The notes below the pieces were generated by a model that was given only the letters and a program-made list of their open reading frames with translations, did not search any database and was not told where the DNA came from. 35,504 bases of DNA, taken from positions 1 to 35,504 of IMG/VR virus record IMGVR_UViG_3300021387_000081. One strand, 5' to 3'. This DNA is from a virus. Made by a program: the position numbers and the translations under genes. This document shows positions 829 through 35,504 of this stretch, piece by piece (positions within the stretch are counted from its first letter, which is position 1; each line of letters begins with the position of its first letter).

Positions 829-1179
829 ATGAATGGCAGCAGGAGTATAGGCGGCGGAAGTCGAAAGCTCTATCATCACGATCCGGATACCGGAGGTGGC
901 GGGAGCACGAAGAAAAGTGTTGACAAATCATCAGATGATGGTGTACAATATGGTAAAGAAGAAATCAAGAATGATTTCGATGGAAAACCATATACCTATC
1001 CTGAATTACATTTACCTAAGAAAGAATATGGCACTGTTATAAGGCAAATCGATGATAACTATGAATCTAAGTATAAAGGCAAGAGTATAGGCTTTCACAG
1101 TACGTCAAAATATACCTATAAATTTGAAATACGTGGATATAACGATTATAACATTTTTTCAAAATGGAAAAATGATTAA
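829..1179 (+). CDS. Leader-linker-variable domain module (type-1 leader). The conserved coding signal already starts at 778, in frame after the protease TGA
   Basis: Same frame as the protease. Codons 787-858 encode ELRYRQYIQLPNGKMNGSRSIGGG, matching portal residues encoded at 34278-34349. The C-terminal 75 aa are AT-rich and unrelated to the other cassettes. Confidence 0.55.
   Translation: MNGSRSIGGGSRKLYHHDPDTGGGGSTKKSVDKSSDDGVQYGKEEIKNDFDGKPYTYPELHLPKKEYGTVIRQIDDNYESKYKGKSIGFHSTSKYTYKFEIRGYNDYNIFSKWKND
920..949 (+). promoter_or_regulatory. Sigma-70-like promoter inside the linker codons (TTGACA-18-TACAAT)
   Basis: ttgaca at 920-925 and tacaat at 944-949. Flank aaaagtgTTGACAaatc matches the four other junction promoters. 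This is the weakest of the set. Confidence 0.45.
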
Positions 1180-14880: not shown

Positions 14881-14909
14881 TTGACAGAAAGCAAAATCTG
14901 GTATATAAT
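14881..14909 (+). promoter_or_regulatory. Perfect consensus sigma-70 promoter on the plus strand
   Basis: TTGACA, a 17-nt spacer and TATAAT with no mismatch. It points against the minus-strand operon. Confidence 0.6.
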
Positions 14910-19938: not shown

Positions 19939-20082
19939 ATAATCAAGCTATTGAACAGGGTACAGTTATCCTATAGTTTGAGAGCAGTGTGATTCTATAG
20001 GGTAATATAAATATTCTTAGTCTTATTATACGACTTTTTATACATTATGTCAATAGCTGAGTTTTAAAAAGGAGGTGATAAA

Positions 20083-28304: not shown

Positions 28305-28660
28305 AGAAGGCATGTCCGTACTGCGGAGGCATCCACAGCAGCGGCGAAGTCTGCGCGAAAAAGCCGGCAGAGAAGAACGCTTCATCCGGCGCAGATGTGT
28401 TCCGCGGCAGCTATGAGTGGAAGGAAAAGCGTGGATACATCATGCGCCGTGACAAGTATCTCTGTCAGGCGTGTCTTCACGGTATAGGCGGAAAGATCCG
28501 GCTCTGCAACGAGGAACTATCAGTGCATCATATACGGCCGCTGAAAACTAACTTTGAGTTGCGTTTAGATGAAAAAAACCTGATAACACTATGCCGTTTT
28601 CATCACGAAAAGGCAGAAAGCGGAGAAATTTCTGCGGAAAAATTGTTAAAAATCTTGTAA
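28301..28660 (+). CDS. HNH endonuclease (terminase-associated)
   Basis: Contains C.YCGG, YLCQAC, VHHI.PL and LCRFHH, and lies immediately upstream of terS. Confidence 0.85.
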   Translation: MKKACPYCGGIHSSGEVCAKKPAEKNASSGADVFRGSYEWKEKRGYIMRRDKYLCQACLHGIGGKIRLCNEELSVHHIRPLKTNFELRLDEKNLITLCRFHHEKAESGEISAEKLLKIL

Positions 28661-28743
28661 AATATCCCCCCGGAGGTCAGATTTTTTTTGAAATGCTCCG
28701 GACATCCACCGACGCCCCCCTCTGAAAATAAAATATTCCCTAA

Positions 28744-29214
28744 ATGAAAGGACGTGATACTGTGGCGAGACCGGCAATGAGTGCGAAAACTACGTCAAAG
28801 CACCTTACGAAGGCGGAGGCTGAGGCAAAGTCCTCGACCGAAGAACTGCTCAGAGGCAGGGCAGACAGGCTGCGTCCGCCTAAGTATCTGACGACTGCGC
28901 AGAAGAAGATCTTCAAGTTCATCGTCCGGGAACTGGAGGGCAGCGGCATCCTTGGCAATCTGGACATCTATGTGCTGACCGAGTGCTGCATCGCGCTTGA
29001 CAGGATGCAGGAGATAGAGAGCAGGATCAATCAGGATCCGGTGCAGCTCAGCAATGACAAGCTGCTGCAATCGAAGGACAGATATACGAAGTCCTTCTTC
29101 CGCTGCTGCAATGAGCTGTGCCTGAGTCCTCAGAGCAGGGCGAAAATGGGCAACCTCAACTTGCAGGCGAAGGAAGAGAATCCGCTGCTGAAGGTGCTGA
29201 GCGATGATGAATAA
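28744..29214 (+). CDS. terS: Terminase small subunit (P27 family)
   Basis: Contains P.YLT..QKKIFKFIV.EL...GILGNLD...L...C.ALDR, typical of P27-family small subunits. Confidence 0.8.
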   Translation: MKGRDTVARPAMSAKTTSKHLTKAEAEAKSSTEELLRGRADRLRPPKYLTTAQKKIFKFIVRELEGSGILGNLDIYVLTECCIALDRMQEIESRINQDPVQLSNDKLLQSKDRYTKSFFRCCNELCLSPQSRAKMGNLNLQAKEENPLLKVLSDDE

Positions 29215-29839
29215 AGACTGGTTCATAGATTACGCGGAACATGCGGTCAGAGTGATAGACATCGAGACACGCTGGTATGAGCTCAGAGGCTGGATAACAA
29301 AAAACGGAAGGCATATCCTGATTGGCGATGATGAGGGTGGCAGCTCCACCAGCGGAGCAGGCAGAAAAGCTGCCAAAAAGGTTGACAAAGCCGGGGAAAG
29401 TGGTATAATTGAAGAAAAGACAGGAGAAACGGCGGGAACTGATGTGCATAAAGTTGGAAAGATAGATGTTGAAAAGTTTGAAACTATTGCAAATGGAAGA
29501 ATTCTCACCGACGAGGTGATCATAACAGATAATCGGATCGAACACATTATTGAGCGAAGAGGTCAGAAGTTTTATGACGATTTTAAAGGCTATTTTCCTG
29601 AAATAATAGAAGCACCCGACTATATATTCAAAGATGATATGGACAATACAGCTATTGTGTCTAAATCATATAGCCATAAGGGAAAAACAGTAAACTTAGT
29701 TCTTAGGCTCGTAGTTGAAGGGGAAAACCCAAGCTATAAGAATTCTATACTAACTGCAATTGGTGAGAACGAGAAAAGATTTGCTCAACGTTTACGCAAT
29801 AACGTTCCTGTGTATAAAAAAGTTGACAAATCAGAATAA
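29204..29839 (+). CDS. Type-2 leader, Gly/Ser linker and PBECR-like (barnase-EndoU-colicin E5/D-RelE fold) nuclease domain
   Basis: 211 aa. The leader is WFIDYAEHAVRVIDIETRWYELRGWITKNGRHILIG. The C-terminus ITDNRIEHIIERRG...PEIIEAPDYIFKD..NTAIVSK...VNLVLRL resembles phage PBECR domains. The gene sits between terS and terL. Confidence 0.7.
   Translation: MMNKDWFIDYAEHAVRVIDIETRWYELRGWITKNGRHILIGDDEGGSSTSGAGRKAAKKVDKAGESGIIEEKTGETAGTDVHKVGKIDVEKFETIANGRILTDEVIITDNRIEHIIERRGQKFYDDFKGYFPEIIEAPDYIFKDDMDNTAIVSKSYSHKGKTVNLVLRLVVEGENPSYKNSILTAIGENEKRFAQRLRNNVPVYKKVDKSE
29219..29325 (+). repeat. 107-nt direct repeat (leader coding), partner at 31762-31868
   Basis: 9 mismatches by eye. Five fall in the codons for ELRG and all five are synonymous. 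Confidence 0.9.
29382..29409 (+). promoter_or_regulatory. Extended -10 consensus promoter inside the linker codons (KKVDKAGESGII)
   Basis: TTGACA at 29382-29387, a 16-nt spacer ending in tgg, and TATAAT at 29404-29409. Confidence 0.55.
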
Positions 29840-29851
29840 ATGTGATATAAT
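29823..29851 (+). promoter_or_regulatory. Extended -10 consensus promoter at the 3' end of the PBECR-like ORF (KKVDKSE-stop)
   Basis: TTGACA at 29823-29828, a 17-nt spacer ending in tga, and TATAAT at 29846-29851. Confidence 0.6.
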
Positions 29852-29857
29852 GAAGGT

Positions 29858-29980
29858 AAGATAAGAGTAGGTTATCAGAGGTGGTAAATTTCGTAGCGAC
29901 CACACGCCGCTGGTAACGACAGGGAGTAATCCCGAGAGATGCAGGAGAATGCTACGCCTGCCTGATAACCACTCTTTCCA
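29858..29980 (+). ncRNA. Candidate structured RNA between terS-side cassette and terL
   Basis: A 15-bp long-range helix (29863-29878 with 29962-29976, one bulged A) encloses hairpins 29881-29903, 29922-29933 (GUAA loop) and 29941-29961. Two hairpin loops carry complementary hexamers cgtagc and gctacg. Confidence 0.45.
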
Positions 29981-29981
29981 G

Positions 29982-30014
29982 ACCGCTTCGAGAAATCGGA
30001 GCGGTTTTCTTATA
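29982..30014 (+). terminator. Intrinsic terminator T4 (family GCGGTTTTCTTAT)
   Basis: accgcttcga/tcggagcggt stem with GAAA loop, followed by ttttcttata. Confidence 0.7.
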
Positions 30015-30041
30015 CCCGGACGCAGAAAGGAGCTGACAGCA

Positions 30042-31742
30042 ATTGACATAGTGAAGAACAGCAGAGCTTATAAATATGCTCTGTGGTGTACCGAGCCGGA
30101 CAATCACTATGTCGGGCGGTACATAAAGAAGCAGGCGGTGATCTGGCTGGAGATAGCGGACGGTCAGAGCGATGAAGCATATGTCTGTGAGAAGCGCTGG
30201 AAGAAGATAACGAAGCTGCTGAAGATCATCATGCACCCTGACCTCGGACATTCGATGTATGAGGGACTTGAGGACTACGCAGTTTTATTCATATATGCCT
30301 TGTTCTGTACAAAGCGCCGGAGCGACAGTCTCCGGTACTACGAGACCGGGCTTTTAGAGATCGCGAGGAAGAACTTCAAGACGTTCACCTCAGCGGTCAT
30401 TTTTATTATCGGACTGCTGACAGAGCCGAAGTTCAGCCGCTTTTTCAGTGTGGCACCGGATCTGAAACTCTCCAGTGAATTGCAGGTGGCTATCAAGAAG
30501 ATAATCAAGTCGAGCCCCTGTCTGGCGGACGAGAAGGTGTTCAAGCTGCTGCGGAAGGAGATACGCTGCAAGCTGACTGACTCTGAGTATACTCCTCTTG
30601 CTTACTTACAGGACAAGATGGACGGAAAGCTTGCAAATATGTTTCTTGCTGACGAGTGCGGAGCAATGGACAACTATCCCATAGAAGCCATGCGATCCTC
30701 ACAGATCGTGCTGAGGGAGAAGCTTGGCATCATCATCTCTACCCAGTACCCCAATGACAACAATGCTATGCTGGAAGAGGTTGACAACGCCAAAAAGATC
30801 CTTGACGGACTACGGCATGGAAGGGTGTTCGCACTGCTCTATGAGCCGGATGATGAGTTCAAGACCGGCGATGCGTGGATGACATCGGACACAGCGCTGT
30901 ATCAGGCTAATCCGGTGGCGTACGCCCATGAATACGTCATGGATGACCTGAGGGCGAAGCGTCAGGCTGCCATAGATTATGAGAACAAGCGGGAGAACTT
31001 CCTGTGCAAGCACATGAACATCCTCTACAAAGGACTCGGAGTTGAGGGATTTGTCGAGATAACGAAGGTAAGACTGTGTAAAGTTCCGGCGGATGCTGAG
31101 TTCTGGAGGGGCAGACAGGTATATATCGGGCTTGACCTCTCTCAGACCGATGACAATACCTCGGTCGCAATGGTGACATATGATGCGGATGAGGATATGA
31201 TATACGTCAAGGTCTGGGGATTCATCCCGGCTGACCGCATCGACGAGAAATCCCAGCGCGAAAAGGTGGATTACAAGAAGCTCATAGCCGCAGGAGAATG
31301 CTTTGCCTGCGGTGATGAGGTCATTGACTACGGCTTTGTGGAGCGGTTCATACAGTCGCTGCCGGAGCAGTACGGCGTTGAGATAGTTCAGCTGGGCTTT
31401 GACCGGTACAATGCTATCTCCACAGTACAGAAGCTGGAAAGCGGAGAGGATCCGATCGAGTGCGTTGAGATTAGACAGCACAGCAGCGTCTTACACAGAC
31501 CAACGAAGCTGCTGAAAGAACGTATCCTGAGCCGTAAGCTGCGGTATGAGGAGAATCATATGCTGGAGATCAACTTCCAGAACGCCAGATGCACCGAGGA
31601 CACGAATCTGAACAAGTATGTCAACAAGAGAAAGTCCGCCGGCAAGGTGGATATGGTGGTATCTGTCATAAACGCGCTGTATCTCTTGCAGGTGAATGTG
31701 CTTGACAGCATGGAGCAGGGGTTCGGGTGCCAGATCATATGA
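30042..31742 (+). CDS. terL: Terminase large subunit (start uncertain: ATT 30042 or GTG 30051)
   Basis: A Terminase_1-like sequence over about 560 aa. The tracked 5' extension contains terminator T4. SD aaaggag lies 9 nt before ATT and 18 nt before GTG. Confidence 0.85.
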   Translation: MDIVKNSRAYKYALWCTEPDNHYVGRYIKKQAVIWLEIADGQSDEAYVCEKRWKKITKLLKIIMHPDLGHSMYEGLEDYAVLFIYALFCTKRRSDSLRYYETGLLEIARKNFKTFTSAVIFIIGLLTEPKFSRFFSVAPDLKLSSELQVAIKKIIKSSPCLADEKVFKLLRKEIRCKLTDSEYTPLAYLQDKMDGKLANMFLADECGAMDNYPIEAMRSSQIVLREKLGIIISTQYPNDNNAMLEEVDNAKKILDGLRHGRVFALLYEPDDEFKTGDAWMTSDTALYQANPVAYAHEYVMDDLRAKRQAAIDYENKRENFLCKHMNILYKGLGVEGFVEITKVRLCKVPADAEFWRGRQVYIGLDLSQTDDNTSVAMVTYDADEDMIYVKVWGFIPADRIDEKSQREKVDYKKLIAAGECFACGDEVIDYGFVERFIQSLPEQYGVEIVQLGFDRYNAISTVQKLESGEDPIECVEIRQHSSVLHRPTKLLKERILSRKLRYEENHMLEINFQNARCTEDTNLNKYVNKRKSAGKVDMVVSVINALYLLQVNVLDSMEQGFGCQII

Positions 31743-31749
31743 GGTGGAT

Positions 31750-32385
31750 ATGGATAATAATTGGTTCATGGACTACGCGGAACATGCGGTCAGAGTGATA
31801 GACATCGAGACACACTGGTATGAATTACGCGGCTGGATAACAAAAAACGGAAGGCATATACTGATTGGTGAAGAAGGCAGTTCTTCCGGCGGAGCAGGCA
31901 AGAGTATTGACAAATCTGCGAAAAGTGGTATAATAAAATCAGGAGCGGTGAGTGGTGCATTATCTCCTGCCAGCAAAGAAGCACAGGCTCATGCTGAGCA
32001 ATACTATGAGTCTGTTCGTAAAATGAAAACAGATGTAAAAAACATCTCAAATAATACCGGCTTTAGTGAAAGCGACATTTTGCAAATAAAGAATCATGTA
32101 TTCATAGAAGAACATGATTTGGGCGGAGACGTCCCAGAGCGTTTTTATCCCAATTATGCTATGGCTCAATCATGGCAAAGGCTTATTGAGGGTAAAAACA
32201 TCCAGAAGCACGATATTACACTGCTTCATCACGAAAAAATGGAAAGCGATTTGATGAAGAAGGGCTTATCTCAGATAAAAGCTCATAGTATATCTGAGAA
32301 AAAGTTTAATTATGCTAAAGAAAGTAGGGAGTATTATGCTGAGATTAATAAACATAGCGATAGGACTAAAAACAATCGAAGCTGA
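31750..32385 (+). CDS. Type-2 leader, Gly/Ser linker and an unrecognised C-terminal domain
   Basis: 211 aa. The leader is WFMDYAEHAVRVIDIETHWYELRGWITKNGRHILIG. The C-terminal region ...IKNHVFIEEHDLGG..PERFYPNYAMAQSWQRLIEGKNIQKHDITLLHHEKMESDL has no homology to the other cassettes. ATG 31750 follows gaggtgg. Confidence 0.7.
   Translation: MDNNWFMDYAEHAVRVIDIETHWYELRGWITKNGRHILIGEEGSSSGGAGKSIDKSAKSGIIKSGAVSGALSPASKEAQAHAEQYYESVRKMKTDVKNISNNTGFSESDILQIKNHVFIEEHDLGGDVPERFYPNYAMAQSWQRLIEGKNIQKHDITLLHHEKMESDLMKKGLSQIKAHSISEKKFNYAKESREYYAEINKHSDRTKNNRS
31762..31868 (+). repeat. 107-nt direct repeat (leader coding), partner at 29219-29325
   Basis: See the partner repeat. A 40-nt block tacgcggaacatgcggtcagagtgatagacatcgagacac is identical in both. 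Confidence 0.9.
31907..31934 (+). promoter_or_regulatory. Extended -10 consensus promoter inside the linker codons (KSIDKSAKSGII)
   Basis: TTGACA at 31907-31912, a 16-nt spacer ending in tgg, and TATAAT at 31929-31934. Confidence 0.55.
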
Positions 32386-32584
32386 TTATATCCCTGAAAA
32401 TAGTGATAAGTCAGCACATATAACGCTTGATATAAAAACAAGGGATTATACTGCCGAGAGTATCAAAGAATTCGGTTCAATGTATGGCAGAATGGCTGCA
32501 AACGGGCTTATAAGGACCCTTGATGAGCTAAAAAGCGGCAAGAGGAAAGAAATTCCCGAAGAAAGACTTGTTATGTGGTATTAA
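32336..32584 (+). CDS. 82-aa protein overlapping the 3' end of the upstream variable domain, candidate cognate partner
   Basis: ATG 32336 lies 5 nt after agggag and overlaps the upstream gene by 50 nt. AT-rich. Confidence 0.5.
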   Translation: MLRLINIAIGLKTIEADYIPENSDKSAHITLDIKTRDYTAESIKEFGSMYGRMAANGLIRTLDELKSGKRKEIPEERLVMWY

Positions 32585-32604
32585 TACCTAAGGTGGGAGG
32601 ATTA

Positions 32605-32721
32605 ATGAAAGTTAAGTACACTGGTAAAACAAGTTTTCTTGTTCTGACAAACGGAAAGATATATGATGTCATTTCTGTCGAAAAAGGTTGGTACAGAATC
32701 AAAGACGACAAAGGTGCTTAA
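32605..32721 (+). CDS. 38-aa short paralogue of the ORF at 34721-34882
   Basis: MKVKYTGKTSFLVLTNGKIYDVISVEKGWYRIKDDKGA compared with MKVKYIGKQYLDTAFEKDKIYEVISVEKGWYRIMTELDEDYLFPPECFEIVEE. SD ggtgggagg. Confidence 0.45.
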   Translation: MKVKYTGKTSFLVLTNGKIYDVISVEKGWYRIKDDKGA

Positions 32722-32811
32722 AGCAACTAAAAAAGGTGAATATCGTGATAACGAATACCGAACGGTAGTAAATAAATTCCTTGATAATCAGCAGAAAGGT
32801 GGGCTTTTTGA

Positions 32812-32922
32812 ATGGAAGAAATGAATGTAGTTCTTGACGGATCAAATAAGGAAGGCTCTGAGAGACTTGCTGAAATGATCAAAAGACTTGAGGAAGAAAA
32901 GAAAAAAGATAAGACCGTCTGA
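32812..32922 (+). CDS. 36-aa charged peptide (speculative)
   Basis: SD aaaggtggg lies 8 nt upstream. The stop lies inside the T3 stem. Confidence 0.3.
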   Translation: MEEMNVVLDGSNKEGSERLAEMIKRLEEEKKKDKTV

Positions 32923-32944
32923 GAGATCAGGCGGTTTTCTTATG
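32914..32944 (+). terminator. Intrinsic terminator T3 (family GCGGTTTTCTTATG)
   Basis: accgtctga/tcaggcggt stem with loop gaga, followed by tttcttatg. Confidence 0.7.
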
Positions 32945-32983
32945 CCTATATTAAAACGCGAAGTGAAGTAAACAACGCTTGAA

Positions 32984-33030
32984 AGCATTTGTGACCGGCA
33001 CCAATGTCGGCTGCAAGTGCTGTTTTTATA
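32984..33030 (+). promoter_or_regulatory. Conserved extended hairpin plus U-tract, copy C (upstream of portal)
   Basis: agcatttgt (32984-32992) pairs with gcaagtgct (33013-33021). Inner stem is ccggca/tgtcgg, followed by gtttttata. Confidence 0.65.
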
Positions 33031-33047
33031 TCCAAACCACGAAAGGA

Positions 33048-34724
33048 GTGGTCAAAATAGGACTTTTCAGACGAAAAAAGCGGCAGGAAATAAGGGCGGA
33101 TACAGCTCAGAACGGCGAAAACACCATACTGACGTTCTTCGGACTGACCGGAGAACTTACGCGGGAGGCTGCGCTGAGCATACCGACGGTATCAGCCTGC
33201 ATCGGCAAGATAGGGGAGACCATATCGCGGCTGCCGGTGAAGCTTTACAGGAAGGATGAAGAGCAGGTCACGGAGATATCCGACGATGACCGGCTGAAGC
33301 TGCTCAACGGCAGCACCGGCGACACTCTCAGCACTGTTGACATGTGGAAAGCAGCGGTGGAGGACTACTACCTCGGGCGCGGAGCATGGATATACGTCAA
33401 CAGCGACGGTCTGAGTGTCCGGAGCCTGCACTATGTGGACAGCCGGAACGTGAGCATCATGTGCAACAATGATCCGATATTCAAGGCATTCAGAGTGCAG
33501 ATAAACGCGCAGAACTATTATGATTTCCAGTTTATCAAGCTGCTGAGGAAGACGCGGGACGGCTACACGAACATCCCGTTGCAGGAGGAGGCATCCTCGG
33601 TACTTTCGGCAGCGTGGAACGCTCTGAAGCTGGAGAACATGATGAACTCCAACGGCGGCTGCAAGCCGGGCTTCCTGAAAGCGAAGAACAGGCTCTCGGA
33701 TGCGGCGATAGCAGCGATCAGGGAAGGTTACCAGAAGGTCTATGACAACGAGCAGAAGCGTGACAAGATAATCGTGCTGAATGACGGTGTTGACTTCGAG
33801 GCGATATCCTCAACGGCTGCGGAGCTCCAGATGAACGAGAATAAGAAGACCAACAGCATCGAGATCTGCAAGCTGTTCGGCTTCCCTCATACGGTCATTG
33901 ACGGCGGAGCATCCGATGACGACAACAAGAAGTTCATTTCGGCGGTCATATCGCTCCTGAATCAGATCGAGACAGAGCTGGACAACGTTCTCCTGCTTGA
34001 ATCCGAGAAGGAGCAGGGGTATTACTGGGCGTTTGATACCAAGGAACTGACACGCGGCAGTCTTCTTGAACGTATGCAGGCTTATGAGATAGCCAAGCGG
34101 AACAACATCCTGCAGGTGGATGAGATCCGCCGGGAAGAGGACTATGAGCCTCTCGGCTTCAACTATATCACCCTCGGTCTTGCTGATGTTCTCCTTGATC
34201 CTGTTACTATGGAGGTCTATACCCCCAATACCGGACAGACAAAGAACCTTGTTACCGGTGAGGAACGGGCACTTACAGAGCTGAGGTACCGCCAATATAT
34301 CCAAGGTCCTGACGGAAAGATGCAGGGGAGCAGAAGCGTAGGCGGAGGAAGAGCGACGAAAAAGGTTGACAAATCCAAAAAAACTGATATAATAAAATTA
34401 GAGGATATTGAGGTCGGAAAGTCACTTGGAGCAAAGGCTAAAAACTATGACATTATGGATTTGGAAACGGGTGAACATTTTAACCTTGTTGAAAGGACCA
34501 GTTTGCAAGATGTTGAGGTCTTTGCTGGAAAGGGCGTTAAATCTGAGTTCCGAAAAGCTGATAAATATGCTAAAAAATACGGCGGTAAAGCCAAAGATTG
34601 GCAACACGCTAAAGGCACAGGAACTGTAGATTATTACGGTGAAGGGCGAAAAGCTGAATTACACTGGGCACAGTGTGAAGGTATAGGAAAACACGATTTT
34701 TTCATAAAGAGGTGGTTGGAATGA
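33048..34724 (+). CDS. Portal protein (HK97 family) with a roughly 130-aa C-terminal leader-linker-toxin-like extension (start uncertain: GTG 33048 or ATA 33057)
   Basis: The portal core includes ALSIPTVSACIGKIGETISRLPVKLY. After ELRYRQYIQGPDGKMQGSRSVGGG comes an AT-rich domain VGKSLGAKAKNYDIMDLETGEHF...WQHAKGTGTVDYYGEGRKAELHWAQ...FFIKRWLE, which resembles C-terminal toxin domains seen on MuF/gp7 head proteins. Confidence 0.85.
   Translation: MVKIGLFRRKKRQEIRADTAQNGENTILTFFGLTGELTREAALSIPTVSACIGKIGETISRLPVKLYRKDEEQVTEISDDDRLKLLNGSTGDTLSTVDMWKAAVEDYYLGRGAWIYVNSDGLSVRSLHYVDSRNVSIMCNNDPIFKAFRVQINAQNYYDFQFIKLLRKTRDGYTNIPLQEEASSVLSAAWNALKLENMMNSNGGCKPGFLKAKNRLSDAAIAAIREGYQKVYDNEQKRDKIIVLNDGVDFEAISSTAAELQMNENKKTNSIEICKLFGFPHTVIDGGASDDDNKKFISAVISLLNQIETELDNVLLLESEKEQGYYWAFDTKELTRGSLLERMQAYEIAKRNNILQVDEIRREEDYEPLGFNYITLGLADVLLDPVTMEVYTPNTGQTKNLVTGEERALTELRYRQYIQGPDGKMQGSRSVGGGRATKKVDKSKKTDIIKLEDIEVGKSLGAKAKNYDIMDLETGEHFNLVERTSLQDVEVFAGKGVKSEFRKADKYAKKYGGKAKDWQHAKGTGTVDYYGEGRKAELHWAQCEGIGKHDFFIKRWLE
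34366..34393 (+). promoter_or_regulatory. Extended -10 consensus promoter inside the portal linker codons (KKVDKSKKTDII)
   Basis: TTGACA at 34366-34371, a 16-nt spacer ending in tga, and TATAAT at 34388-34393. Confidence 0.55.
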
Positions 34725-34882
34725 AAGTCAAATATATAGGTAAACAGTATTTAGATACAGCTTTTGAAAAAGACAAAATATATGAAGTTATTTCGGTTGA
34801 AAAAGGCTGGTATAGGATAATGACTGAGCTTGACGAAGATTATCTTTTTCCACCTGAATGCTTTGAAATCGTAGAAGAATAA
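34721..34882 (+). CDS. 53-aa small protein, candidate cognate partner, paralogue of 32605-32721
   Basis: ATGA overlap with the portal stop. SD agaggtgg. Confidence 0.55.
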   Translation: MKVKYIGKQYLDTAFEKDKIYEVISVEKGWYRIMTELDEDYLFPPECFEIVEE

Positions 34883-34945
34883 AGAAAACAAGCGTAATCT
34901 ATAATTCTAAGGGCAACTTCCTCACGTTTGAAAGGGAGTGAGCAT

Positions 34946-35212
34946 ATGTGTAAACTTTTTGATGAATGGGCATCAGAGATTGAGATGTTTTGTCAGAAAA
35001 ATGATCTCAGCTTTGACAAGGCAAAGACACTTTCGCAGTGTTGGGGAAAAGACGATCTTATCTTGCAGTACTACGATAAAGAAAAGGGGAAAAACGGACT
35101 GCTCGATGAAACACCTATGCCTGTTGTTCTCTGGATAAAACGTGATAAGAATGGAAATCTTTCATTTGAAAAAACTGAGCATACTGAAAAATACCTTGGA
35201 AAAGTTTCCTAA
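34946..35212 (+). CDS. 88-aa hypothetical protein (cassette cargo)
   Basis: ATG 34946 lies 7 nt after agggag. It is followed directly by terminator T2. Confidence 0.6.
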   Translation: MCKLFDEWASEIEMFCQKNDLSFDKAKTLSQCWGKDDLILQYYDKEKGKNGLLDETPMPVVLWIKRDKNGNLSFEKTEHTEKYLGKVS

Positions 35213-35221
35213 TACTTCAAA

Positions 35222-35251
35222 ACCGCCCTCACTGAGAGCGGTTTTCTTATG
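35222..35251 (+). terminator. Intrinsic terminator T2 (family GCGGTTTTCTTATG)
   Basis: accgccctca/tgagagcggt followed by ttttcttatg. It differs from T1 at one loop base. Confidence 0.7.
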
Positions 35252-35274
35252 TCCATTTGAAGGAGGTGAGGAGA

Positions 35275-35504
35275 ATGGACGAGAAAGCCTTACAGATAGT
35301 CAGAGATTATATATTTGCACATCTCGACAAGACGGATACTGTTCCGCCTTTTGATGTCTATATGGTCTGGAAGTGCAAAGCCTTGCAGAACTGGAAGTAT
35401 CTTATCTCCAGTACGCTGTGCGACGGTATGTACTATGAGCTGACATACAACGGCGACAAGAAGGAATGGTATCTCGACGCTTACAAGAAGTTCGAGAATG
35501 TTGT
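35275..35504 (+). CDS. Small conserved phage protein (79 aa in total; continues at 1-120)
   Basis: ATG 35275 follows aggaggtgag. Translation MDEKALQIVRDYIFAHLDKTDTVPPFDVYMVWKCKALQNWKYLISSTLCDGMYYELTYNGDKKEWYLDAYKK resembles a widespread head-module hypothetical family. Confidence 0.75.
   Translation, partial: MDEKALQIVRDYIFAHLDKTDTVPPFDVYMVWKCKALQNWKYLISSTLCDGMYYELTYNGDKKEWYLDAYKKFENV
35398..35504. repeat. Terminal overlap identical to 1-107
   Basis: See feature 1-107. Confidence 0.95.

Follow-up and report, generated by a model that had tools for sequence, protein, structure and literature searches.

A toxin-like domain, a candidate immunity partner and a predicted promoter carried on the portal gene of a rumen Ruminococcus phage

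The portal gene of a rumen virus, IMG/VR record IMGVR_UViG_3300021387_000081 (positions 1 to 35,504; 'the window' hereafter means this whole stretch of 35,504 nucleotides), ends in a toxin-like domain that the portals of close relatives exchange for unrelated domains, or lack. A small gene for a candidate immunity protein overlaps its stop codon, and a predicted promoter of perfect consensus lies within the codons that link the domain to the portal. We consider it probable that these parts form a polymorphic toxin/immunity cassette that is borne on the portal, built like a moron, loaded in the capsid, and able to keep its partner gene on in lysogens. The window is a complete circular genome of ~35.4 kb from a temperate-type siphophage of Ruminococcus; the circular assembly comes to ~35,397 bp, with an exact direct repeat of 107 bp at its ends (positions 1–107 = 35398–35504). 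Features are on the plus (+) strand unless stated otherwise.

The open reading frame (ORF) in question, 32979..34724, encodes 581 amino acids (aa) counted from TTG 32979, and its product is an HK97-type portal. Pfam Phage_portal (PF04860) matches residues 69–388 (E 9e-44, 150.3 bits, cut-off 39.1), TIGR01537 (portal_HK97) matches residues 61–392 (144.6 bits, cut-off 112), and the core of the AlphaFold2 (AF2) model, calculated for a 558-aa form, resembles the HK97 portal structures 8fql_A and 8cez_A (E~1e-13, probability 1.00). The portal core, 33048..34271, which carries the Pfam and TIGRFAM matches, ends ...TPNTGQTKNLVTGEERA. The portals of deposited phages align to residues 4–404 only of the 558-aa form (tblastn, 50,697 phage records), and none of the 219 matching records covers 80% of this query. 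The fused portal is found, 100% identical, on three contigs (NCBI, ENA and Logan; cluster P0093), one entry being the window's own protein, HBB71830.1, annotated just 'phage portal protein [Ruminococcus sp.]'. The same fusion is present in seven further clusters: P0094, P0095, P0096, P0100, P0131, P0140 and P0175. Where the portal starts is less clear-cut: TTG 32979, GTG 32991 and GTG 33048 are each used in public gene calls, and the ATG with which the relatives begin (MKGVV...) is ACG in the window, at 33039–33041.

Beyond 34271 the protein continues through a 20-aa leader (LTELRYRQYIQGPDGKMQGS, 34272..34331), a Gly-rich tether (RSVGGGRAT, 34332..34358) and the peptide KKVDKSKKTDII, into a 112-aa toxin-like domain of what we term subtype A (DIIKLEDIEVGKS...KRWLE, 34386..34721). 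The preliminary description of this DNA placed the end of portal homology at LTELRYRQYIQ, which is right within ~10 residues. The peptides it quoted are all present, and the fall in guanine-plus-cytosine content (GC) that it reported across the junction, from 31/60 at 34261–34320 to 21/60 at 34381–34440, is exact. The portal core has 53% GC, the toxin domain (the final 112 codons) 40% and the partner ORF 30%. The leader is one of several interchangeable types, the others being ELRYNHNHDxxGRFxSG, ELRGWITKNGRHILIG and WxKGxHGYFxGS; docking to the portal or capsid is one possible role for it, and provision of a protease site is another. In the full-length model, predicted local distance difference test (pLDDT) scores are below 50 at residues 404–416 and, in the Gly-rich tether, 428–442, and above 90 in the domain, so the domain appears to hang on a flexible tether. 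Modelled separately (a 128-aa construct with 49 homologs), it forms a confident fold of its own, with a mean pLDDT of 87.5 and, from residue 55 of the construct, a strand-helix-strand-strand-strand core.

What the portal carries at this position varies widely. In the 120 best portal homologs, with cores 62–100% identical to the window's, 108 have tails, and these fall into 18 BLAST clusters; 10 end less than 45 residues beyond PNTGQ and have no tail. Ntox50 accounts for 23 portals, three unnamed families for 14, 13 and 10, a DUF4258 group for 10 and the window's domain for 8; also among the clusters are an HNHP-motif type (6), ADP-ribosyltransferases (ARTs; 2), an HExxH-motif type (2) and PF15644 (1). 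One related phage, L011, has a portal of 410 aa that stops where the core ends, and the protease and capsid genes come straight after it. In another, L007, a near-identical portal core is joined to Ntox50, with a different 62-aa ORF after it, and the window's domain forms a gene of its own between TerS and TerL. Compared with a third relative, L009, the window's DNA is ~82% identical in the core, 47–55% in the leader, and 90–100% in toxin and partner. Varied or absent tails on cores of 62–92% identity, together with this break in DNA identity, mark the tail as a swappable accessory rather than a piece of the crown. The preliminary description had anticipated as much, proposing a toxin-like module on the portal; it had named universal conservation of the extension with the core as an outcome that would sink the idea, and the survey found the opposite.

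The partner gene, 34721..34882, overlaps the portal stop by ATGA (34721–34724), as first reported, and a GAGGTGG ribosome-binding site lies 5 nt upstream of its ATG. It encodes a 53-aa acidic protein (isoelectric point, pI, 4.5) of PHROG 34144. That it resembles a coupled immunity gene had been suggested at the outset, and wider sampling bears this out. Genes of the partner family start within 30 nt of the toxin stop at 69 of the 80 IMG/VR loci that have the domain, and for 43 of 54 distinct toxins, and their subtype follows that of the toxin: subtype A toxins (...AELHWAQCEG...WLE) pair with partners that read ...IMTELDEDYLFPPECFEIVEE, and subtype B toxins (...AEVHWFQEK...WED) with partners that read ...IKDDSGEDYLYPPESFEVVEK. 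The window's partner is 100% identical in L009 and in a further relative, L010. Downstream of the L010 portal come, in order, the partner of a subtype B pair, an orphan subtype A partner, and a displaced portal C-terminal fragment (MDVFTPNTGQTKNL...) that is joined to another toxin with a small ORF of its own. Subtype pairing, orphan partners and displaced tail fragments are signatures of toxin/immunity cassettes, and the 53-aa protein is likely to be the cognate immunity protein. Unrelated C-terminal domains on a conserved carrier, a small downstream gene that travels with the toxin domain, and displaced tails with orphan immunity genes, the features by which polymorphic toxins are recognized, all occur in these phages, the last in the L010 array and in the window itself (829..1179, 32605–32721 and 32663–32922).

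The 'linker' of the preliminary description appears to be a consensus promoter as well, conserved at the DNA level, which that account had missed. The codons of KKVDKSKKTDII, namely GTTGACAAATCCAAAAAAACTGATATAAT, hold a perfect extended −10 promoter (34366..34393, 12/12 in the hexamers): the −35 TTGACA at 34366–34371, a 16-nt spacer with TGA at its end (TG at 34385–34386), and the −10 TATAAT at 34388–34393. Transcription is predicted to start at ~34400. The signature TTGACA-N16-TGnTATAAT, translated in frame as [VIL]D[KN]x4[DG]II, underlies the conserved junction peptide KKVDKSxKxDII. Perfect TTGACA-N16-18-TATAAT sites occur six times in the window, against 0.03 expected. Four of the six (at 29382, 29823, 31907 and 34366) are at cassette junctions, all on the plus strand and all with TG; a fifth junction, 920–949, reaches 11/12, its spacer being 18 nt. 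The remaining two perfect sites (N17), at 14881–14909 (+) and 20025–20053 (−), lie amid minus-strand and early/lysogeny genes, and are probably real lysogeny or early promoters. Upstream of the domain, in 50 distinct sequences, the hexamers match at 12/12 in 18, at 11/12 in 8 and at 10/12 in 13, when only 0.75% of random 115-nt control windows contain a 12/12 match. TG is present in 42 of the 50, and the −35 hexamer lies at one and the same offset from the domain in 27, with most of the rest at a few other offsets.

Three observations show that it is the DNA that is conserved. All 26 distinct junctions, related ones being counted here as independent, have GAC for the Asp and ATA for the first Ile, against backgrounds of 37% and 34% in the same cassettes, while the spacer varies freely. 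In an orphan copy of the domain, L001, the −35 hexamer lies outside the usual frame (V-L-T-K) and the spacer is 17 nt, with the promoter intact. And at 29823–29851 in the window, both hexamers and the TG are intact despite a TAA stop codon in the spacer. A transcript begun at ~34400 should give the partner and not the toxin, for the first in-frame ATG, at 34455, has no ribosome-binding site, and the partner has GAGGTGG. The most economical reading is that the predicted promoter transcribes the partner independently of the late operon. The unit it would serve appears to end in a terminator-like hairpin and U-run at 35219..35245 (−12.9 kcal/mol, z −3.8), and a second hairpin with U-run, at 32912–32940 (−18.1 kcal/mol, z −4.05), closes the other array just before the portal gene. 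Both were detected by folding; a consensus scan of 28500–35504 returned no terminators. With a promoter of their own and terminator hairpins around low-GC genes (30–40%, vs 53% in the core), the cassettes have, in silico, the architecture of morons. Between partner and terminator, and hence inside the promoter-to-terminator unit of the domain, is an 88-aa ORF, 34946..35212, whose homolog in L012 does not adjoin the window's toxin type; it may be an orphan immunity gene.

A run of seven A's, 34377–34383, falls in the linker codons that double as promoter spacer, and is shared, among the junctions examined, with L009 only. A programmed frameshift was considered at this run and not adopted: both alternative frames stop within three codons (AAC TGA in −1, CTG ATA TAA in +1), so slippage would yield a portal without the toxin, and among those junctions only the window and L009 have the run.

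The domain belongs to a large family. A profile search of 1.84 billion cluster representatives gathers 1,634 clusters at E<=1e-3, and the domain is C-terminal in every one. Among 74 long representatives the carriers include Phage_min_cap2 (MuF2; 21), Phage_Mu_F (MuF1; 18) and VG15 (7), along with Phage_portal (2) and Phage_portal_3 (1), which supports the view that it is mainly a MuF C-terminal module; other members are short proteins of ~115 aa that have the leader only. Genomic copies found by a single-protein scan occupy 12 loci, nearly all in metagenome-assembled genomes of Ruminococcus, Oscillospiraceae or Clostridia. In the window's portal protein no MuF domain was found, PF04860 being the sole Pfam match. 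The preliminary description had linked the sequence pattern of the domain to the C-termini of MuF proteins, and there it does occur; the name it tentatively attached, Ntox50, does not hold. Ntox50 is a BECR-fold RNase whose conserved motifs are H, S, K, T, H, K and HxVP (PMC3482391), and these are absent from the domain. Neither the window's copy nor any of 49 family members matches PF15542 at E<=1, and when the domain is aligned by hhalign with Ntox50 tails from sister portals the probability is 0.1%. Ntox50 does occupy the tail position in 23 of the sister portals.

Profile and structure searches, which had been put forward as a way to check the domain, return the confident fold described above without a match in the profile libraries (Pfam, PHROGs, NCBIfam) or the PDB. 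PDB sequences yielded nothing, by single sequence or by profile, and Foldseek found no fold match there (best E 0.7), whether to BECR or to any other solved toxin fold; against BFVD it found uncharacterised homologs only. tblastn of the 50,697 deposited phage genomes gave no match to the domain, so no cultured phage can serve as a model. Conservation over 288 distinct members picks out D25, G29, E36, G37, FAGKG 46–50, GG 66–67, WQH 72–74, K76, AE 90–91, HW 93–94, Q96, GK 101–102, K108 and W110, which give the motifs FAGKG, GG, WQHxKG, AExHW, GK and KxW. The window's copy retains all but one: it has Arg (AGG, 34494–34496) at G37, which is Gly in 96% of the 288 members and in the nearly identical P0094. 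The conserved His, Glu, His and Lys, on an alpha+beta sheet, hint at a metal-independent nuclease as the likeliest activity.

How might such a cassette work? We picture a captured mobile unit of four parts: a junction that would be both linker and sigma-A promoter, the 112-aa domain, the coupled 53-aa partner, and a terminator after one further ORF. During late expression the domain would be made as the C-terminus of each portal subunit, and would hang from the crown on its Gly-rich tether; the known orientation of HK97-type portals puts it there and, as part of the portal, it would be enclosed in the procapsid without a separate targeting system. At infection it would exit with the DNA and act in the cytoplasm of the new cell, possibly after a cut by the S78 prohead protease in the Lys-rich linker. 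That cut is conjecture on our part, since the capsid and protease sequences contain no motif resembling the linker. The partner would neutralise the domain in the producing cell, and the embedded promoter, by firing outside the late operon, would leave lysogens immune to toxin from sibling virions. The conserved junction would also provide homology for the swapping of cassettes among portals, MuF proteins and short stand-alone leader carriers.

Several points weigh against this interpretation. A domain fused to the portal cannot leave the capsid uncleaved, and no protease site was identified. A strong promoter and a terminator inside a late operon would call for antitermination or read-through, and the conserved 28-bp element could be mainly a recombination site instead of a promoter. 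The codon statistics draw on related junctions. Eleven of the 80 loci have no partner. The change of G37 to Arg may attenuate the toxin in the window; the domain is not basic (pI 7.1); and with no PDB counterpart to its fold (best E 0.7), the activity we ascribe to it is a guess. If all elements of the proposal are taken jointly—a toxin system of Ruminococcus/Oscillospiraceae phages carried on the portal in up to 12 copies, with stand-alone leaders after TerS, TerL and the protease; a dual-coding promoter junction that is also the swap point and gives lysogens immunity; and a toxin fold and a 53-aa immunity family that are both new—we rate it at a little under an even chance.

Among other explanations, the one we take most seriously, while thinking it unlikely, is that the domain is a host-takeover or anti-defence effector, a 'polyvalent protein', and does not act by inhibiting growth, the partner being a chaperone, a regulator or an adaptor for packaging instead of an immunity protein. 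Such a role has been assigned to fusions of PBECR, 2H, Nudix, InPase and ART domains with portal and MuF proteins (PMC5512222, PMC9503650), the window itself encodes a leader-PBECR2 protein without an obvious partner, and the 11 loci that lack the partner fit this explanation as well. But the pairing is tight and coupled by ATGA, partner subtype tracks toxin subtype, orphan partners outlast displaced toxins (in L010, L009 and at 32605–32721 in the window), and a separate promoter of the constitutive type is predicted to serve the partner. Close pairing, persistence as orphans, and a promoter of one's own are to be expected of immunity genes, not of a chaperone. Somewhat less probable again is that the 28-bp element is mainly a site of recombination or cassette capture, like the VENN region of cdiA, that it merely looks like a promoter, and that the partner is expressed from late transcripts alone. 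The element is indeed the exact breakpoint of the DNA mosaics, and is common to all carriers and all toxin types. Exchange driven by homology does not, however, require a 12/12 consensus with TG and a fixed spacing of 16–17 nt around a free spacer sequence, and the two other perfect sites, in the early/lysogeny region, suggest that in this phage such a consensus belongs to genuine control regions. One role does not preclude the other.

Two further explanations can be given little credence. Some portals have long structural C-terminal extensions, the barrel of P22 for example, and the tail might similarly be a structural part (crown, barrel or DNA-retention plug) that co-evolves with the core. 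This is already contradicted by the presence of 18 unrelated tails, and of tail-less portals, on near-identical cores, with L011 complete without one; by the occurrence of the same domain on MuF proteins and on ~115-aa proteins; and by the disordered tether and the breaks in GC and DNA identity at the junction. Just as improbable is that the fusion is an artefact of assembly or annotation, or a recent, functionless read-through of a lost stop codon. The sequence is metagenomic, the portal start codon is uncertain, and a conserved Gly has become Arg, but the identical fusion on three contigs and in seven further clusters, the attachment of some tail to 108 of 120 relatives, and the integrity of the other conserved residues all speak against an accident.

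Portal-effector fusions have appeared in surveys (PMC5512222, PMC9503650), and the concept of MuF toxins is established (PMC5576092). MuF polymorphic toxins belong to temperate phages of Firmicutes (Jamet et al. 2017, PMC5576092; Zhang et al. 2012, PMC3482391), and have been proposed to be released and injected (PMC5576092). Like them, the window's system has a head-associated carrier, a variable C-terminal toxin, a small downstream ORF, and a home in gut Firmicutes prophages; the domain itself is found on MuF1 and MuF2 proteins, and Ntox50 and ART tails are shared. Unlike them, its carrier is the portal (PF04860), which has none of the MuF domains (MuF1–4), and 12 copies are expected per virion, vs 1–2 for gp7 of SPP1. 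The additional stand-alone leader carriers after TerS, TerL and the protease, and the promoter predicted in the junction, also set it apart, and the catalogued toxin domains do not include its own. Effector domains on portal and MuF proteins figure in surveys of 'polyvalent proteins' too (Iyer et al. 2017, PMC5512222; Iyer et al. 2022, PMC9503650), where portal fusions to PBECR, 2H, InPase, Nudix and ART are likewise read as packaged and injected. Those surveys describe single architectures, whereas here one portal lineage carries many tails, with partners, orphan arrays and a shared junction.

In its organization the locus resembles the CdiA-CT/CdiI, Rhs-CT and type VI secretion system (T6SS) cassettes (PMC5361080), which also have a junction that acts as swap point, displaced tails that keep a piece of the carrier, and orphan immunity genes downstream. 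It differs in that the carrier is a virion protein and the junction a predicted promoter rather than a peptide motif (VENN). Second promoters for immunity genes are known from nuclease colicin operons (PMC9742991) and from the T6SS immunity genes of V. cholerae (PMC3857813). There, as proposed here, a promoter inside the toxin gene, or ahead of its end, maintains immunity while the toxin operon is off; the one predicted in the window differs in being upstream of the toxin domain, in linker codons, and part of a mobile cassette.

The parallel with morons is that of a low-GC promoter-gene-terminator unit inserted in a late operon, which is what morons are, with the difference that the unit in the window begins inside an essential structural gene. 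Phage T4 packages Alt and the internal proteins, which its prohead protease processes and which are injected; a packaged protein, like T4 Alt, is what we propose here, although we identified neither a capsid-targeting sequence nor a cleavage site. A literature search returned no account of a portal lineage in the role of polymorphic carrier, complete with cognate partners and arrays of orphans, nor of the window's toxin/partner family, nor of a cassette junction with a consensus promoter as its second function.

Polymorphic toxins delivered by phages have so far been tied to MuF proteins. A portal carrier sets both stoichiometry and location, and this makes loading and release directly testable. 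A promoter in the linker would offer a concrete and mutable explanation for immunity in the prophage state, and its in-frame signature can serve in searches of gut and rumen viromes for further toxin cassettes. The domain and its partner, for their part, define a large uncharacterised toxin/partner pair, of ~1,600 clusters, with no known fold match.

The remaining features of the window concern the relatives of the portal cassette. The preliminary description spoke of 'the same leader and linker', and other copies do occur in this DNA, at 29204..29839, 31750..32385 and 829..1179; with the portal tail, this makes four leader-type modules, the other three being situated after TerS, after TerL and after the protease. 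Stand-alone carriers have in common an N-terminus of ~40 aa (WFMxYAEHAVRVIDIETHWY) and the leader ELRGWITKNGRHILIG, which is also found on portals. In the gene after TerS, 29204..29839, the stand-alone leader reads WFIDYAEHAVRVIDIETRWYELRGWITKNGRHILIG; the gene also has a Gly-rich linker, a predicted junction promoter (29382–29409) and a nuclease domain of the PBECR2 type (35.6 bits, cut-off 27.1), but lacks an evident partner ORF. Its protein ends in 'KKVDKSE*', which belongs to a remnant junction, 29823..29851, with the perfect TG-containing promoter and the stop codon in the spacer noted above, ~100 nt upstream of TerL. The gene after TerL, 31750..32385, has the same stand-alone leader, a predicted junction promoter at 31907–31934, and an unclassified toxin-like domain that has no Pfam match and is also the portal tail in P0174, P0178 and P0188. 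A small ORF of 82–90 aa, 32336..32584, overlaps its end and is its candidate partner; the two are kept together in L009.

Between this pair and the portal, 32605–32940 has the look of a graveyard of displaced modules. It contains a truncated, 38-aa subtype B partner, an orphan remnant (32605..32721; PHROG 34144 at E 1e-13) that has full-length counterparts in L007, L009 and L010; then the 3' remnant of an HNHP-motif toxin (32663–32824; compare L009:2204–2935); a 36-aa partner of that toxin (32812–32922; for toxin and partner together, compare L009:2204–3033); and the hairpin at 32912–32940. An orphan toxin tail of the P0097 type, 829..1179, lies between the protease and capsid genes; it begins inside the leader (MNGSRSIGGG), and its junction promoter, 920–949, is degraded. 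Another ORF, which starts at 35277, spans the circular junction of the window. The orphan L001 (7851–8737) is chromosomal, on a contig of a cellulolytic bacterium and beside GH9/CBM3 genes; it consists of a C-terminal fragment of a minor-capsid-2 protein, the toxin domain and a partner of 53 aa, with an HNH gene behind them.

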